Shown here piece after piece: positions 4,489 to 48,161 of a stretch of DNA of 64,000 bases. The first letter of the stretch is position 1, and every line of letters begins with the position of its first letter. This DNA comes from Clostridia bacterium. Its GTDB lineage: Bacteria; Bacillota; Clostridia; Oscillospirales; CAG-272. A program made the translations under genes and the position numbers. The notes below the pieces were generated by a model. It saw only the letters and a program-made list of their open reading frames with translations, ran no database searches and had not been told where the DNA came from. The DNA lies in assembly GCA_017463765.1 (NCBI GenBank), contig JAFTON010000002.1, positions 206 to 64,205 of the forward strand, read 5' to 3'.

Positions 4489-5262
4489 CTAAATTGGCAG
4501 GTCAAGCCTGCTCAGTCTGTCGAGCAGCTCATCATCCTCGGTGGGAATATCCTCGGCAGCCTCTATACGACGGCGAAGCGAAAGCATACGGCTGTCTGTT
4601 TCGGCAATCCTCTCGGCGCATTCCTTAAGCTCGGAGGAAACAAGCTCGGCATCCGGAATCTCCTTTTTATACTTCATCTGATGCTCAAGACTTGCCCAAT
4701 AATCCATGGCAATCGTGCGTATCTGTACCTCAACCTTAACGTTTTTCTTGGTTTCGGAAAGAAACACCGGGATCGATACGATAAGATGCAGGCTGCGATA
4801 GCCGTTCGGCTTCGGATTTTCAATATAATCCTTACGCGCCACAAGCGTTACGTCATCCTGGCTGAGAAGCGAATCGGCGATAAGATAAATGTCGTCAACG
4901 TAGGGGCATATTACACGCACACCTGCGATATCGTTTATATTCTCCTCAATGCTCTCCATACTGAAGGGATATCCACGGCGCAAAAGCTTTTCAATCACGC
5001 TCTCGGTCCTTTTCAGACGGGAAGCGATCGAGCTGATGGGATTACGCTTATATTTCAGCTTGAACTCGCAGTCAAGCACCTCGAGCTTCGTCTTTATTTC
5101 CTTCATGGCGCAGGTGTAGATCATCTGCATTTCCTTGTATTCAACCACCGACCACATCATGCGCTTGGTCTGGTCTATAAGCATATCCATAGCACCACTG
5201 TCGGAAAGCATTTTCATCATACCCATGGCAGTTTTATCCATTAAGGAACGGTCGTCATTCAT
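4489..5262 (-). CDS. small alarmone synthetase (RelA/SpoT-domain GTP pyrophosphokinase)
   Basis: Motifs DIAGVRVICPYVDDIY, YRSLHLIV and VEVQIRTIAMDYWASLEH. An AGGAG lies 8 nt before the ATG at 5262. The longer ORF to 5355 is less likely. Confidence 0.85.
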   Translation of the reverse strand: MNDDRSLMDKTAMGMMKMLSDSGAMDMLIDQTKRMMWSVVEYKEMQMIYTCAMKEIKTKLEVLDCEFKLKYKRNPISSIASRLKRTESVIEKLLRRGYPFSMESIEENINDIAGVRVICPYVDDIYLIADSLLSQDDVTLVARKDYIENPKPNGYRSLHLIVSIPVFLSETKKNVKVEVQIRTIAMDYWASLEHQMKYKKEIPDAELVSSELKECAERIAETDSRMLSLRRRIEAAEDIPTEDDELLDRLSRLDLPI

Positions 5263-5394
5263 AGTCATTTCTCCTTTAGTTGATTTATCTGACATTTTAA
5301 TTATATCAAAAACTGATTTCCATTTCTTGCTTTTTTTATGAACGAATATTAACACCTTGTAAAGAAAAATGCCACGCTTAGTGGCATTTTCATA

Positions 5395-5942: not shown

Positions 5943-6719
5943 TTATCCAAGCAGGAAGTCCATACACAGCATCAGCGCAAATCCACCGAGAAGCGCATAG
6001 GTTGCGCCACGTTGTGCGCCGTGAGCGTGGGTCTCGGGTATCATCTCATCGGAGATAACGTAAAGCATCGTTCCACCTGCGAAGGCAAGAGCGAATGGCA
6101 ATATTGCCTCCGAAACACTTACGGCAAGATAACCGATAAAAGTACCCACAACCTCTACAAGTCCGGTAAGCGATGCAATAAGCAGCGTACGCTTCTTGCT
6201 CACGCCTGCAGCCAGCATCGGCGCAATAATTACCATACCCTCGGGGATATTCTGAAGCGCAATACCGAAAGCAATAACGAGCGCCCTCGATACGTCGGCA
6301 GGATTACCCGAACCAAAGCCAACACCTGCTGCAATTCCCTCCGGCAGATTATGTATGGCGATAGCCATAACAAAAAGAAGCACCTTTGAAAGACCTGCGT
6401 TTTTGTGTTCCTCGCTATCCACACCTGCAAGAGCATGAAGGTGTGGCACAAGCTTGTCTATAAGGTTAAGGCAGAGTGCGCCAACAAACATTCCCACCAC
6501 GGTCATCAGCAATGCAACGCCAACTCCGTAATCCTCCATACCGTACTCAACAGACGGAATAATAAGTCCGATCACTGCTGCCGCAAGCATTACTCCCGCA
6601 GCAAAGGAAAGTATAATATCCGAAAACTTATGGGATATGTTTTTAAATGCGAAGCCGATAAGCGCACCGATAACGGTTGCGCCACCGACACCTAAGGCTG
6701 TAAGCAATACTAAATCCAT
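5943..6719 (-). CDS. ZIP-family metal (zinc) transporter
   Basis: 258 aa, polytopic. HNLPEGIAAG and QNIPEG ZIP signature motifs. Confidence 0.85.
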   Translation of the reverse strand: MDLVLLTALGVGGATVIGALIGFAFKNISHKFSDIILSFAAGVMLAAAVIGLIIPSVEYGMEDYGVGVALLMTVVGMFVGALCLNLIDKLVPHLHALAGVDSEEHKNAGLSKVLLFVMAIAIHNLPEGIAAGVGFGSGNPADVSRALVIAFGIALQNIPEGMVIIAPMLAAGVSKKRTLLIASLTGLVEVVGTFIGYLAVSVSEAILPFALAFAGGTMLYVISDEMIPETHAHGAQRGATYALLGGFALMLCMDFLLG

Positions 6720-6786
6720 TATTAATATCCTTTCGCTGCCTCCACCGAACTAAAGGCAGAAGGGCGAGTTTCCTCGCCCTGTTTTT

Positions 6787-7296
6787 TTATAAAACCAGAC
6801 TGGGTGCGCTGTAAACTCTCGCTGCAAGCTCCTGGTTAAGCATATAGAGACTCTTAGGATCAGAGCCGAAAAGCTCCATCTTGGTAATCATATCGTTAGC
6901 GTTGGTCTCCTCCTCGCCCTGCTCCTTAACAAACCAATCAAGGAACTGCATGGTACGGAAGTCATGGATCTTATAAGCCTCGGCATAGATATCGTGAATA
7001 AGGCTGGTAACGTACTTCTCATGCTCAAGGCCTGCCTCAAGAACTGCCATATGGCTGTTAAGCTCCTTATCGGGCTTATCAATCGCCTTAAGGGTTACGA
7101 CCTGATTCTCGTTCTGAAGATACTGATAGAAGAGCATTGCGTGATCGCGCTCCTCCTGTGCCTGAATCATATACCAATTTGCAAAGCCGTCAAGTCCAAC
7201 GCGCTTGAAATAGTTAGAAAAATCAAGATAAAGGTATGCGCTGTAAAGCTCTTTGTTAATCTGATCGTTTAAAAGCTCATGTACTCTTTCGTTCAT
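6787..7296 (-). CDS. ferritin (non-haem, ferritin-like diiron)
   Basis: 169 aa. LNDQINKELYSAYLY, QAQEERDHA and LEHEK motifs. Confidence 0.9.
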   Translation of the reverse strand: MNERVHELLNDQINKELYSAYLYLDFSNYFKRVGLDGFANWYMIQAQEERDHAMLFYQYLQNENQVVTLKAIDKPDKELNSHMAVLEAGLEHEKYVTSLIHDIYAEAYKIHDFRTMQFLDWFVKEQGEEETNANDMITKMELFGSDPKSLYMLNQELAARVYSAPSLVL

Positions 7297-7333: not shown

Positions 7334-7714
7334 TCAAATATCCACTTTCCAGAGGCCGTGGAGATTACAGTAAGCGTAAACCTCAAGAGGCTTCTCATCG
7401 GCGAGTGCAAAAACAACCTTTGGTTCTTCGCCTGGGTTAAGGTGCTTTCTCTGAACGCCACGATCGGTCTTAAGCTCGATCCAGAGGATAGAGTGCTCCT
7501 CTACCATAGGATGCTCTACCGATCCCACAACAACCTTCACGGTATTTCCCTCTACGGTTGCAACGGGAATGTGCTTCTCACGGCTTGCCTCAACGGTGCC
7601 TGCCTCAATGGGAGTCATCTTCTGACCGCAGCATACTACGGGAACTCCGGAATCATCGATCTTCTCAATTACGTTGCCACACTTTTCACAGATATAAAAT
7701 TTGGTTTTAGACAT
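7334..7714 (-). CDS. dfx: desulfoferrodoxin (superoxide reductase)
   Basis: 126 aa. N-terminal desulforedoxin-like CEKCGN...VVCCGQ, and a C-terminal SOR domain ending in CNLHGLW. Confidence 0.9.
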   Translation of the reverse strand: MSKTKFYICEKCGNVIEKIDDSGVPVVCCGQKMTPIEAGTVEASREKHIPVATVEGNTVKVVVGSVEHPMVEEHSILWIELKTDRGVQRKHLNPGEEPKVVFALADEKPLEVYAYCNLHGLWKVDI

Positions 7715-7784
7715 TATTTTATTCCTCCATAGGTTTGTATTTTTGTTTTGTGATTATATTATAGCATATTTTTTCGCATTTGTG

Positions 7785-7799
7785 TGTGACTTTGTCACA
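7785..7799. promoter_or_regulatory. 15-bp palindrome TGTGAC-TTT-GTCACA, Crp/Fnr-type site in the dfx / MBL-crp divergent region
   Basis: Perfect palindrome. On the minus strand it lies exactly 21 nt upstream of TATAAT (7758-7763) in front of dfx, and there is no -35 hexamer. Confidence 0.6.
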
Positions 7800-7830
7800 T
7801 TTTTTTATTTTTTTTATTATTTTTATTTTA

Positions 7831-7859
7831 TTGACATAAATGGAAAATAGTGCTATAAT
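7831..7859 (+). promoter_or_regulatory. consensus sigma-A promoter of the MBL-hydrolase/crp operon
   Basis: TTGACA-17 nt-TATAAT, preceded by a long T-rich tract (7800-7830). Confidence 0.65.
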
Positions 7860-7886: not shown

Positions 7887-8648
7887 ATGAGAATAATCTC
7901 ACTTGCAGAAAACACCTCGCGAAGAGATGACATCAGGTCCGAACACGGTCTGTCGCTGTATATTGAGGCGTGTGGAAAGAAAATCCTTTTCGACATGGGA
8001 CAGAGTGATATTTTCTATGATAACGCCCTTGCTCTTGGCGTTGATATTTCCTCGGTAGACATTGCCATAATTTCCCACGGTCACTACGACCACGGTGGTG
8101 GACTTAAAAGGTTTCTTGAGATAAACGGGAGTGCACCGATATATATAAGAAGGACTGCCACCCTTCCCTACTACAACGGTGAAAGATACATCGGACTTGA
8201 TCCAACCCTTACCGATTGTGACAGGCTGATCTTTACCGATGGCGAGCTTTCTGTATGCGAGGGAATACGTCTTGTCTCCATAGACAGTGCGCCGGATGAC
8301 GTTGGCGAAATGAAATTGCGTGTTGGTGACAGATTCATTCCCGACAGCTTTAACCACGAGCAGTATCTGCTTATAGAAGAGGGTGAAAGGCGCACGCTTA
8401 TCAGTGGCTGCTCCCACAAGGGAATTATTGCCATTGCAGAGCATTTTAAACCGAATGTGCTTATCGGTGGATTTCACTTTATGAATATGGAGACGGGAGA
8501 TGAGCTTAAAGAACGCGCCGAAAGACTTGACGCCATAGATTGCGACTACTACACCTGTCACTGCACAGGAGTATTACAGTATGAGTATCTTACCAAATAT
8601 ATAAAAAGGATAAAATACCTGTCGGCAGGCGACAGTATAGAGATTTAG
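7887..8648 (+). CDS. MBL-fold metallo-hydrolase
   Basis: ISHGHYDHGGG metal-binding motif. 253 aa. Confidence 0.8.
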   Translation: MRIISLAENTSRRDDIRSEHGLSLYIEACGKKILFDMGQSDIFYDNALALGVDISSVDIAIISHGHYDHGGGLKRFLEINGSAPIYIRRTATLPYYNGERYIGLDPTLTDCDRLIFTDGELSVCEGIRLVSIDSAPDDVGEMKLRVGDRFIPDSFNHEQYLLIEEGERRTLISGCSHKGIIAIAEHFKPNVLIGGFHFMNMETGDELKERAERLDAIDCDYYTCHCTGVLQYEYLTKYIKRIKYLSAGDSIEI

Positions 8649-8660
8649 GAATCGAAAAAA

Positions 8661-9338
8661 ATGAACGAAACAGAGCTTACTGAATTATTCGAAAAAGCAT
8701 TTCCCTTCTGGGAAGGACTCACCGATTGGGACAGGAACACCTTTATTCACTCATCCCAAAAGGTAAAATTTTCAAAGGGCGCAAACGTACACGACGGTGG
8801 CGAGTGCACCGGTGTTATTCTTATTAAATCGGGCGTGCTGCGCCTTTACCTTTTATCCGACGAAGGCAAGGAGGTCACACTCTACAGGCTTTTCCCCGGA
8901 GAGATGTGCATTTTCTCAGCGTCCTGCGTTCTTGACAGCATAACCTTCGACGTTTTTATTGACGCCGAGGAGGACAGCCAATGCGTCGTTGTGGGTGGCT
9001 GCGCTTATGAGGGTGTGTGGCAGAAATCCGATGCAGTTAAGATTTTCACCTATGAAACTGCGCTCAGCCGTTTTTCCGACGTAATGTGGGTAATGCAGCA
9101 GATACTCTTTATGAGCATGGACAAGCGTCTTGCCATCTTCTTGCTTGACGAAACCTCAAAAAACGGCAGCGATACAGTAAAGCTCACCCATGAGCAGATA
9201 GCAAAATATATGGGCTCTGCCCGTGAGGTCGTAACCCGAATGCTGAAATACTTTGTCTCCGAGGGTCTTATCTCGGCTTCAAGGAGCGAGGGAATAAAGA
9301 TAATTGACAAGAAAAGATTAAGAAGCCTGGCAATCTAA
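8661..9338 (+). CDS. Crp/Fnr-family transcriptional regulator
   Basis: N-terminal cNMP-binding-like beta-roll. C-terminal HTH with SAREVVTRMLK (RE..R, as in the CRP recognition helix). No N-terminal FNR-type Cys cluster. Confidence 0.85.
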   Translation: MNETELTELFEKAFPFWEGLTDWDRNTFIHSSQKVKFSKGANVHDGGECTGVILIKSGVLRLYLLSDEGKEVTLYRLFPGEMCIFSASCVLDSITFDVFIDAEEDSQCVVVGGCAYEGVWQKSDAVKIFTYETALSRFSDVMWVMQQILFMSMDKRLAIFLLDETSKNGSDTVKLTHEQIAKYMGSAREVVTRMLKYFVSEGLISASRSEGIKIIDKKRLRSLAI

Positions 9339-9358: not shown

Positions 9359-9381
9359 CCTCCCGAACGGGAGGTTTTTTT
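9359..9381 (+). terminator. intrinsic terminator after the Crp/Fnr gene
   Basis: CCTCCC-GAAC-GGGAGG followed by TTTTTTT, with an A-run upstream. Confidence 0.8.
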
Positions 9382-9411: not shown

Positions 9412-9560
9412 TCATACGTCGAGTGGGAGAAAGCGAGGTTTTTAACCAAAAATAGCAAGTTTCAGTGCGAAGATAGTTTTGAGGTAAAAAGCTTGATTGC
9501 GACCCGAAGGCGTATTCTCATACGTCGAGTGGGAGAAAGCGAGGTTTTTAACCAAAAATA
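9412..9560. repeat. intergenic repeat family, locus A (43-bp exact direct repeat, period 106 bp; one half copy plus one full copy)
   Basis: TCATACGTCGAGTGGGAGAAAGCGAGGTTTTTAACCAAAAATA at 9412-9454 and 9518-9560. The full copy carries the TTGCGACCCGAAGG core from 9497. Confidence 0.85.
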
Positions 9561-9869
9561 TCAAGCACCAACGAGATCGAGGATTTGATCTTTGCTCCTC
9601 GCTCCACTTACCTTTTTCAGAATCTTGCCCTCTTTCATAACCACAAGCGTGGGAATGCTGAGGACTCCGAACTCACGGGCAAGGTCCGGGTTATCGTTTA
9701 CGTTTATCTTTCCAACCAGGAGATCTTCTCTCTCTGCTGCGATCTCATCCACAAGAGGAAGCACCATACGGCACGGACCACACCAATCAGCATAGAAATC
9801 GAGAAGCGAAAGTCCCTTGTTGTTTCTTACCTGATTAAAATTTTCGTTATTAAGTCTAATAGCTGACAT
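9561..9869 (-). CDS. trxA: thioredoxin
   Basis: 102 aa with the WCGPC active site. Confidence 0.9.
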   Translation of the reverse strand: MSAIRLNNENFNQVRNNKGLSLLDFYADWCGPCRMVLPLVDEIAAEREDLLVGKINVNDNPDLAREFGVLSIPTLVVMKEGKILKKVSGARSKDQILDLVGA

Positions 9870-9937
9870 AAAATATCTCCTTTTCGTTTAAAATTTTGTT
9901 TTGTGAGTACATTATACCAACAAATCGGCGATCCGTC

Positions 9938-9952
9938 TGTGATAAAGTCACA
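9938..9952. promoter_or_regulatory. 15-bp near-palindrome TGTGAT-AAA-GTCACA, Crp/Fnr-type site in the trxA promoter
   Basis: On the minus strand, TGTGACTTTATCACA lies exactly 21 nt upstream of TATAAT (9911-9916). This is the same spacing as at dfx. Confidence 0.6.
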
Positions 9953-15692: not shown

Positions 15693-16364
15693 ATGGCAAA
15701 GCAAAAGAAAAATTCAAACTACGTCACAGAAAAAACAGTTGCAGCCAAGGCAGAGCGTGACGCAGCAAAGATTAAGGAAGAAAAGGATAGAAAAACCAAG
15801 ATTCTCGCAATCTCTATCGGCTCGGCTGTGGCAGCGATAGCATTGATTGTAGGTCTGCTCTTCGCCTTCGGTGCTTTTGAGTATAAGCCCGAGCCCACCT
15901 ATCACGCAACCTTTAATTTTGACAACGGCAGCTCGCTTCATATTGAGCTCTATGGCAATGATGCTCCCGAAACCGTAAAGCACTTCCGTAAGCTTTGTGA
16001 GGACGGACACTTTGACGGTCGAAGTGCAAACAGCCTTATCGACGAGCTGCTCTATTTCGGCAAGGACGTTGAAGGCGTTGAGGGCATTAAGGGCGAGTTT
16101 GCAGACAACGGTGTTGAAAACAAGATTCCTATGAAGAAGGGTGTTCTTTGTATGGCGAGAGGCTCTGAGTACAACTCTGCATACGGTCAGTTCTTCGTTC
16201 TGACAAAGAACAACTCCTCCCTTAAGGGACAGTATGCTGCATTCGGAAGAATAACCGAGCTTGACGGACTTGAAAATCTGCTCGACAGCATCACTGTTTC
16301 CGACGATGGCAAGGTTACCGAGTCACCAAAGATCACAGGCGTATCGCTTCACGCAGCTCATTAA
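15693..16364 (+). CDS. cyclophilin-type peptidyl-prolyl isomerase, membrane anchored
   Basis: ATG at 15693 (MAKQKK). One TM helix, then LHIELYGNDAPETVKHFRKLCEDGHFDG and a QFFVL cyclophilin core. Confidence 0.85.
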   Translation: MAKQKKNSNYVTEKTVAAKAERDAAKIKEEKDRKTKILAISIGSAVAAIALIVGLLFAFGAFEYKPEPTYHATFNFDNGSSLHIELYGNDAPETVKHFRKLCEDGHFDGRSANSLIDELLYFGKDVEGVEGIKGEFADNGVENKIPMKKGVLCMARGSEYNSAYGQFFVLTKNNSSLKGQYAAFGRITELDGLENLLDSITVSDDGKVTESPKITGVSLHAAH

Positions 16365-47745: not shown

Positions 47746-47821
47746 GGAAGGTTAGCTCAGTTGGGAGAGCATCTGCCTTACAAGCAGAGGGTCACAGGTT
47801 CGAGCCCTGTACTTTCCACCA
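47746..47821 (+). tRNA. tRNA-Val (anticodon TAC)
   Basis: Hand-folded cloverleaf: acceptor GGAAGGT/ACTTTCC, anticodon loop CTTACAA, T-loop TTCGAGC, encoded CCA. Confidence 0.9.
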
Positions 47822-47849
47822 AAGCTTAGAGCCTTAGGCTCTAAGCTTT
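47821..47849 (+). other. perfect 13-bp stem / 3-nt loop hairpin between tRNA-Val and tRNA-Asp
   Basis: AAAGCTTAGAGCC-TTA-GGCTCTAAGCTTT. It begins at the last A of the tRNA-Val CCA. Confidence 0.8.
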
Positions 47850-47863
47850 CAATTTTACTACTC

Positions 47864-47940
47864 GGCTTGGTAGCTCAGTTGGTTAGAGCGCTAGCCTGTC
47901 ACGCTAGAGGTCGTGGGTTCGAGCCCCATCCGAGTCGCCA
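47864..47940 (+). tRNA. tRNA-Asp (anticodon GTC)
   Basis: Acceptor GGCTTGG/CCGAGTC, anticodon loop CTGTCAC, T-arm GTGGG-TTCGAGC-CCCAT, encoded CCA. Confidence 0.9.
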
Positions 47941-48046
47941 CATTTTTATATCAGTCATTACCGGCTCGAACAGAGGAGGTAGTGAATGACAGTCCGGTGG
48001 ACTGTCAGAGCCGACGGCGACCAAGACGCGCAGTTCGCGTCGCGAC

Positions 48047-48067
48047 CGAGCCCCATCCGAGTCGCCA
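48047..48067 (+). repeat. 21-nt exact duplicate of the tRNA-Asp 3' end (T-loop to CCA)
   Basis: CGAGCCCCATCCGAGTCGCCA occurs at 47920-47940 (inside the tRNA) and again at 48047-48067. Confidence 0.85.
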
Positions 48068-48085
48068 TTTTAAAAATCAATACCT

Positions 48086-48161
48086 GCGGATTTAGCTCAT
48101 TTGGTAGAGCGCCACCTTGCCAAGGTGGAGGTGGCGGGTTCGAGCCCCGTAATCCGCTCCA
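48086..48161 (+). tRNA. tRNA-Gly (anticodon GCC)
   Basis: Acceptor GCGGATT/AATCCGC, anticodon loop TTGCCAA, T-arm GCGGG-TTCGAGC-CCCGT, encoded CCA. Confidence 0.9.

Follow-up and report, generated by a model that had tools for sequence, protein, structure and literature searches.

The canonical binding sites of the CRP/FNR family of transcriptional regulators are TGTGA-N6-TCACA and TTGAT-N4-ATCAA, both of which can be written as GT-N10-AC. The recognition helix of CRP is R180-E181-x-x-x-R185 and suits TGTGA half-sites; FNR, which recognizes TTGAT-N4-ATCAA, has in Escherichia coli the N-terminal Cys20, Cys23 and Cys29 together with Cys122, and the haem ligands of CooA are the N-terminal Pro2 and Cys75/His77. 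To our knowledge, the known regulators of the response to oxygen, reactive oxygen species (ROS) and thiol stress (PerR, OxyR, Spx/OseR and sigma-B) belong to lineages other than the dominant anaerobic Firmicutes of gut and rumen. A CRP/FNR class-II activator answering oxidative stress has a precedent in SdrP of Thermus, whose sites are next to or overlap the -35 element and whose main stimulus is oxidative stress (PMC8465061). Here, a 15-bp palindrome is analyzed that lies upstream of the desulfoferrodoxin gene (dfx) in a stretch of 64,000 nucleotides, hereafter called the window, from contig JAFTON010000002.1 of a Clostridia bacterium (assembly GCA_017463765.1); it had been pointed out in a preliminary description made from the sequence. 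With a probability of roughly three in four, this palindrome would be the binding site by which the adjoining Crp/Fnr regulator, acting as a class-II activator, turns on dfx-ferritin and a thioredoxin gene; the site, with its half-sites one base closer together than usual, recurs beside related regulators in hundreds of further anaerobes.

The palindrome occupies positions 7785-7799, where the + strand reads TGTGACTTTGTCACA and the minus strand, on which dfx is encoded, reads TGTGACAAAGTCACA; it has a perfect 6-3-6 structure, with half-sites TGTGAC and GTCACA around AAA, and its centre is at 7792. On the dfx strand, exactly 21 nt (7784-7764) separate it from the downstream hexamer TATAAT (7763-7758), as the preliminary description had reported; that account did not mention that TGC directly precedes the hexamer, forming an extended -10 element (TGcTATAAT, 7758-7766, minus strand). 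Its statement that no -35 is recognizable agrees with the sequence CACACA found at this position with a 17-bp spacer (three of six matches to TTGACA), and with a promoter scan, which found no sigma-70 promoter on the dfx strand. A CA dinucleotide conserved 6-7 nt after the -10 (alignment positions 48-49 are C and A in 43 and 41 of 57 promoters, respectively) puts the predicted transcription start, as judged from the alignment, at A7751 on the minus strand, 7 nt after the -10, and therefore the centre of the palindrome at about -41, which fits the class-II geometry proposed earlier. The gene identities assigned in that description were likewise confirmed by Pfam. On the minus strand, dfx (7334-7714; superoxide reductase; PF01880, 1.4e-21, and PF06397) is the first gene of a predicted operon and is followed after 37 nt by a ferritin gene (6787-7296; PF00210). 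On the + strand, an MBL-fold metallo-hydrolase gene (7887-8648; PF00753) is upstream of, and in the same operon as, the gene for a Crp/Fnr-family regulator of 225 amino acids (8661-9338; HTH_Crp_2, Crp and cNMP_binding domains); this operon has a consensus sigma-70 promoter, TTGACA-17-TATAAT with TG (7831-7859; 12 of 12 matches in the promoter scan).

A mismatch search of the window revealed a second site, missed in the preliminary description, at 9938-9952 on the minus strand (TGTGACTTTATCACA; TGTGAC and ATCACA around TTT, one mismatch). This operator is upstream of a trxA-like thioredoxin gene (9561-9869, minus strand, convergent with the regulator gene; PF00085, 2.4e-26) and is again followed by exactly 21 nt and by an extended -10, TGgTATAAT (9911-9919, minus strand; hexamer 9916-9911), 41 nt upstream of the thioredoxin start; with a transcription start predicted near 9904, it would also stand at about -41. 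Thus, the regulator gene is flanked by two promoters of identical architecture. The two matches to the palindrome with at most one mismatch compare with 0.14 expected in the window, and with a position matrix that takes in palindrome, spacer and -10 the two operators score 45.4 and 34.5 bits, respectively, whereas no other window position reaches 12 bits and none of 20 shuffles reaches 8 bits. Two-mismatch matches at 1632, 53042 and 56579 and core matches at 16314 and 60898 fail this matrix and were treated as chance occurrences. At the predicted +1 of both promoters there is also an A-rich leader, TCACAAAACAAAA (7740-7753 and 9894-9906, minus strand), which holds a TCACA half-site and is kept in close relatives (alignment positions 47-54), and which is not conserved in the diverse metagenome promoter set described below.

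Conservation was studied beside orthologous regulators in a near set of 80 loci (814 kb), obtained by scanning one genome per species, whose regulators are 62-85% identical to that of the window; most of the sources are metagenome-assembled genomes that bear the label Oscillospiraceae, Eubacteriales or Clostridia, and many come from the guts of ruminants; the best 120 database clusters contain proteins 77-99% identical to the window regulator. When up to one mismatch is allowed, 70 copies of TGTGAC-N3-GTCACA are present, spread over 52 of the 80 loci, where our own arithmetic for 12 specified bases gives about two by chance; no other spacing of these half-sites between N0 and N8 gives more than two copies (zero to two each). 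The preliminary description had called the half-site spacing unusual, as it is one base shorter than in the classical CRP site: this feature is real and systematic, since exact TGTGA-N5-TCACA was found 47 times near the 80 regulators and the canonical TGTGA-N6-TCACA not once. When all spacings of 12-30 nt on both sides were considered, a TATAAT-like hexamer with at most one mismatch was present at exactly 21 nt from 57 of 72 sites, and this geometry is seen before six different gene families. The genes downstream of the site encode thioredoxin (26), desulfoferrodoxin (23) and thioredoxin reductase (6), and more rarely ferritin with a site of its own (4), rubredoxin (1) and a CcdA/DsbD-type membrane protein (1). 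A lack of conservation before orthologous dfx genes had been named in advance as evidence against the proposed site; the motif is conserved there, with orthologs of the dfx operator in the three loci L001-L003 and in many others, and dfx is the first gene after it in 23 loci. The dfx-ferritin tandem, with gaps of 17-60 nt, is kept in 27 loci, which supports the earlier suggestion that ferritin is controlled together with dfx, the two genes being probably co-transcribed.

Alignment of 57 promoters indicates what is kept in this architecture. The promoter-distal half-site TGTGAC is almost invariant, while the final base of the promoter-proximal one varies, and eight positions are invariant in sequence, beyond pairing alone, at all 57 sites. 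Immediately after the palindrome a G and an A are conserved, also in the diverse metagenome set, and with a 17-bp spacer the two coincide with the GA in what is left of a -35 (caGAca or caGAnn). The regulators' own promoters, located in the same intergenic regions, are instead near-perfect TTGACA-17-TATAAT sequences whose distance from the palindrome varies between 4 and 63 nt, so that a regular -35 is in use in these organisms wherever a promoter can do without a helper; target promoters that lack the -35 and have, at a distance set to the exact base pair, a site for a dimer bear the signature of class-II activation. By the position of the site relative to the predicted start, the poor -35 and the good -10, the promoters have the layout of the class-II type. 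Autoregulation of the window clade through the same fixed geometry was considered and found no support, given the consensus sequence of the regulator's own promoter and its variable distance from the site.

The connection between site and regulator was also approached from the DNA pattern alone. A metagenome collection was scanned for TGTGAC-N3-GTCACA-N21-TATAAT, the regulator playing no part in the selection, and this yielded at least 120 loci (L081-L200) with 123 sites. Among the matches listed, 68 of the 123 sites share their locus, often a short one, with a gene for a homolog of the regulator (24-80% identity); the median distance between the two is 227 bp, and in 48 cases it lies within 500 bp. 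A few of the pattern-only matches look like chance. Linkage of a motif to a regulator gene is the standard criterion of comparative genomics for pairing a transcription factor with its motif, and here such linkage extends over a wide phylogenetic range. Again among the matches listed, the downstream genes code for thioredoxin in 36 cases, for YgaP-like membrane proteins in 16, for small 2x[4Fe-4S] ferredoxins in 15 and for pyridine-nucleotide disulfide oxidoreductases in 12; the last group takes in thioredoxin reductase as well as an 820-aa CoA-disulfide-reductase-rhodanese-TusA-DsrE fusion. Less frequent are rubredoxin and YeeE/YedE sulfur-transport proteins (6 each) and desulfoferrodoxin (3), and the list further includes rubrerythrin, rhodaneses, a CcdA-type protein and a ferredoxin-thioredoxin-reductase-like protein. 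With at least 62 cases in the near and metagenome sets together, thioredoxin is the gene that most often follows the motif.

Two side observations concern the more distant members of this set. In several of them (e.g., L102, L155, L121, L085 and L164) the identical site, with the same geometry, precedes genes for YgaP-like (DUF2892) and YeeE/YedE proteins, the fusion protein or rhodaneses, a gene set that points to the handling of sulfane sulfur or persulfide more than to oxygen detoxification. At four other loci (L091, L124, L149 and L166) the first gene after the site codes for a Crp/Fnr-type regulator of 227-230 amino acids; some distant members of the subfamily are thus probably autoregulated, unlike the window clade.

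The window regulator falls within the CRP/FNR superfamily by fold and domains. It matches PF00027 (27.9 bits against a cut-off of 27.5), PF13545 (4.3e-16) and PF00325 (3.6e-9); the AlphaFold2 model predicts a CRP-like fold confidently (pLDDT 92.5), with the expected beta-roll strands, and in Foldseek the top match is the structure 3dv8 (TM-score 0.83), followed by GlxR, CRP, CooA and FNR, all 50 among the matches listed being CRP/FNR proteins. Judged from these comparisons, however, it fits no named subfamily: no curated NCBIfam family includes it, all scores being far below the cut-offs, and the motif assigned to it by comparative genomics departs from the canonical spacing of the superfamily. 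The preliminary description had noted a CRP-like RE..R recognition helix, and this stands: the helix reads GSAREVVTR, with R188-E189-x-x-x-R193; in 36 diverse members, 32-52% identical to the window protein, the first two of these residues never vary and R193 is kept in 90% or more. Such a helix resembles that of CRP and so fits the TGTGA half-sites. The same description had stated that the FNR cysteine cluster is absent; this is right for the N-terminal cluster, as the first cysteine is residue 49, but the sensor domain does contain five cysteines that are invariant in the clade (C49, C83, C89, C108 and C114), and in the wider subfamily 90% or more of the members retain C49, C83 and C89. According to the model, a strand ends at C83, and C89 is in a short helix that matches the phosphate-binding cassette, in the region of lowest confidence. 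We infer from these observations that the pocket may bind no nucleotide and carry instead a thiol switch or a cysteine-ligated cofactor.

A variant of the system is found in the Eubacterium rectale branch, where proteins 80-93% identical to 3dv8 are very abundant, with one cluster alone comprising 25,610 member sequences. Nine loci of this branch (L202-L210), with five different regulator proteins, all contain GTGAT-N3-ATCAC followed by GAA, and at 21 nt a -10 hexamer that is TATAAT in eight and TACAAT in one (L209); the targets are thioredoxin, thioredoxin-rhodanese-CoA-disulfide-reductase or SDR-thioredoxin operons. In the E. rectale-type regulators a His replaces Ala187, just before R-E, while in all regulators found next to an exact TGTGAC...GTCACA site this residue is Ala, Ser or Val. 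Thus, a change in the helix accompanies the change at base 6 of the half-site, which is what direct recognition predicts, although few independent lineages are involved. In L208 and L209 (7091-10295), genes for a flavin reductase-rubredoxin fusion, hemerythrin, desulfoferrodoxin and rubrerythrin adjoin the regulator and its SDR-thioredoxin target; a relaxed scan found no site for this rubredoxin-hemerythrin-dfx-rubrerythrin cluster, which may be under different control or have a weaker site.

The mechanism that we propose is as follows. A dimer of the regulator would bind at 7785-7799 and at its near-copy 9938-9952, on either side of its own gene; bound at -41 of promoters having a good -10 and no usable -35, it would recruit RNA polymerase in the class-II manner and so turn on transcription of dfx-ferritin and thioredoxin. 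In related genomes this layout would bring thioredoxin reductase, rubredoxin, rubrerythrin and CcdA under the regulator's control, and in more distant ones sulfane-sulfur genes. Since the regulator is itself read from a consensus constitutive promoter, control would be exerted on the activity of the protein. The likeliest input is the oxidation of the C49-C83-C89 triad, or the loss or gain of a cofactor there, the triad being predicted to line what in CRP is the cyclic-nucleotide pocket; the protein would thus serve an obligate anaerobe as a redox or thiol-stress sensor.

Several considerations weigh against this proposal. The loci come from related genomes, so that the site counts overstate the number of independent events; across the subfamily binding, start sites and the sign of regulation are predictions, and the signal is read solely from the regulon content and the conserved cysteines. 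The odd 15-bp palindrome does not fit GT-N10-AC, and the binding of SdrP is lost when the spacer is shortened by 1 bp (PMC8465061). Furthermore, the extended -10 of both window promoters can work without a -35, so that a protein at -41 could repress, and the mutant of PgRsp, a Crp/Fnr protein of Porphyromonas gingivalis, has raised expression of oxidative-stress genes, which resembles repression (PMC6955866).

The last two points lead to the most serious alternative, in which the same regulator and sites are retained with the opposite sign: the protein would be a repressor at -41 of self-sufficient extended -10 promoters, released upon oxidative stress. TGnTATAAT is indeed present in both window promoters, and roughly every second related promoter of the near set also carries the TG of an extended -10; the phenotype of the mutant of PgRsp, a possible member of the subfamily, would agree with this alternative. 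Neither a -35 nor an extended -10 is present in roughly half of the near-set promoters and in most of those in the diverse set, and such promoters would be very weak unaided. Moreover, the 21-nt distance is constant to a single base pair across unrelated genes and distant taxa, which argues for a contact between protein and polymerase that a steric block would not need, and the regulators' own promoters carry a normal -35 where no activator is needed. Repression is thus considered unlikely, and activation by the adjoining regulator is preferred.

The 7-1-7 boxes of Fur/PerR proteins are odd 15-bp palindromes. A palindrome of this type, typical of those boxes and atypical of CRP/FNR as regards spacing (PMC8465061), might be bound by another factor (Rex-, Fur/PerR- or Rrf2-type) encoded elsewhere, with the Crp/Fnr gene being merely a member of the regulon. 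This is clearly less probable still: the Crp/Fnr gene is linked to the motif over 24-85% protein identity, including the loci selected by the pattern alone, the TGTGA half-sites match the RExxxR helix, and the helix varies together with base 6; besides, the regulator gene is usually not found after a site and is read from its own consensus promoter. A reading in which the palindrome binds no protein, and is either an inverted repeat arisen by chance or a hairpin or terminator at the RNA level, is very improbable, even though a terminator scan flags 7784-7800 (+) because of the T-run that follows and the hairpin folds at -5.7 to -7 kcal/mol, for this hairpin is weak, no + strand gene ends there, the thioredoxin copy has no T-run, the palindrome is upstream of the predicted start, the eight invariant positions reveal conservation of sequence and not of pairing, and the enrichment is at least 35-fold at one spacing only.

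Further features of the window concern the surroundings of these genes. A ZIP-family metal transporter gene (5943-6719, minus strand; Pfam) follows ferritin after 67 nt, and the interval contains only a hairpin (6761-6780) with no clear T-run; a ZIP homolog is present at 18 of 80 related loci, and the gene may be part of the dfx-ferritin transcript. The MBL-fold gene is beside the regulator in just seven of 80 related loci, the regulator being monocistronic elsewhere, and the MBL-regulator arrangement is clade-specific. Downstream of the regulator, a probable bidirectional terminator (9359-9381; hairpin CCTCCC-GAAC-GGGAGG between an A-run and a T-run) was read from the sequence; it is absent from the output of the terminator scan, although it is clear by eye and GC-rich. 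Between this terminator and the 3' end of the thioredoxin gene there is a 48-nt direct repeat (9412-9459 and 9518-9565; 98% identical, 106 nt from start to start), whose second copy overlaps the thioredoxin stop codon; no further copies were found in the window or in the fetched loci, except in the one from the same contig (L201). Farther away, the + strand contains a purine riboswitch aptamer at 7-104 (Rfam RF00167; 50.7 bits against a gathering score of 37) and three consecutive tRNA genes at 47746-48158 (Rfam RF00005), and on the minus strand a 288-aa open reading frame (4489-5355) may code for a small alarmone synthetase, which it resembles by eye in its RelA/SpoT-like motifs.

As to the described members of the superfamily, the window protein is neither CRP proper (NCBIfam NF008732, 33.6 bits against a cut-off of 266) nor FNR (NCBIfam Fnr, 20.9 bits against 228; a different motif). 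CRP/FNR class-II promoters of E. coli likewise have a dimer site near -41.5 over a degenerate -35, with TGTGA half-sites and an RExxxR helix; compared with E. coli CRP, the N5 spacing of the window sites, instead of N6, puts the dyad on a base pair and the centre at -41. The similarity to SdrP (TTHA1359) of Thermus thermophilus is in the DNA-binding domain only (E = 1.1e-4); that protein needs GT-N10-AC, does not bind with a 5-bp spacer and, unlike the window regulator, has no cysteine triad; it requires no effector (PMC8465061).

The closest characterized relative by sequence is CooA of Rhodospirillum rubrum (PDB 1ft9), a haem CO sensor (E = 2.6e-9, about 23% identity). In the phmmer alignment C83 and C89 fall on the segment of the haem ligands Cys75/His77, and C89 aligns with Cys80 of CooA. 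However, the window protein has neither an N-terminal Pro ligand (its N-terminus is M-N-E-T) nor a His at the position of His77, where Ser86 is found, and Cys83 is one residue off Cys75; motif and regulon also differ. Judging from these residues, haem might still be bound through ligands other than those of CooA. In this regard, PgRsp was described as a haem-binding, redox-sensing Crp/Fnr protein of 'a novel family', implicated in how its anaerobic host cell responds to oxidative stress and best modelled on 3DV8 (PMC6955866). It may be a distant relative of the window protein, the sole link being its template; its mutant phenotype is the one mentioned above, and no DNA motif was reported for it (PMC6955866). 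The Crp/Fnr structure 2gau, also from P. gingivalis, is just 18% identical to the window protein (Foldseek).

The targets overlap with those of Spx, PerR, OxyR and OseR (thioredoxin system, superoxide reductase and rubrerythrin) in Firmicutes and Bacteroides, but these regulators belong to unrelated families and have unrelated motifs. Control of the thioredoxin system, superoxide reductase and rubrerythrin has been reported in Clostridioides difficile (PMC11481553); OseR of this species was considered as a known counterpart and rejected, as it is an unrelated Spx/YusI-type protein with no common motif. The literature yielded no paper with the motif, in several spellings, or with a Crp/Fnr regulator of dfx or thioredoxin in Clostridia, and nothing relevant on Crp/Fnr proteins together with desulfoferrodoxin, thioredoxin, rubredoxin or persulfide genes; a 2013 survey of CRP/FNR motifs mentions neither clostridial members nor N5 spacing (PMC3590769).

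A broader view can be put forward tentatively, with the balance leaning slightly against it: that an undescribed and widespread CRP/FNR subfamily, sensing through its cysteine triad and binding an odd 15-bp palindrome, is the main thiol and oxidative-stress activator of obligately anaerobic gut Clostridia. If so, it would span Oscillospiraceae and Lachnospiraceae, including E. rectale, and its signal would be oxidants or reactive sulfur, perceived through a switch of the disulfide or persulfide kind, through an Fe-S cluster or through a cysteine-ligated haem. The regulon shift in distant relatives, towards CoA-disulfide reductase-rhodanese, YeeE and YgaP-like proteins, hints that the ancestral signal was sulfane sulfur or thiol oxidation, and not oxygen. 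In any case, a concrete candidate pair of regulator and operator is now available, for which the motif and the architecture of the promoters are defined and a core regulon can be named (superoxide reductase, ferritin, rubredoxin, thioredoxin and thioredoxin reductase).

The closest solved relative is EUBREC_1222 of E. rectale (PDB 3dv8), a structural-genomics entry with no described function (phmmer E = 1.3e-61, 46% identity). Like the window protein it has Cys49, Cys83 and Cys89, and unlike it lacks C108 and C114; its branch has the helix GSHREVITR, the site GTGAT-N3-ATCAC and thioredoxin-rhodanese-CoA-disulfide-reductase operons as targets, not dfx-ferritin. The fixed spacing, one base shorter than the GT-N10-AC that characterized members share and that SdrP strictly requires, poses a structural puzzle (PMC8465061): binding to GT-N9-AC would need a dimer geometry unlike that of every characterized family member. 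Since the candidate pair extends to E. rectale, whose ortholog has the crystal structure 3dv8, the hypothesis is directly testable.

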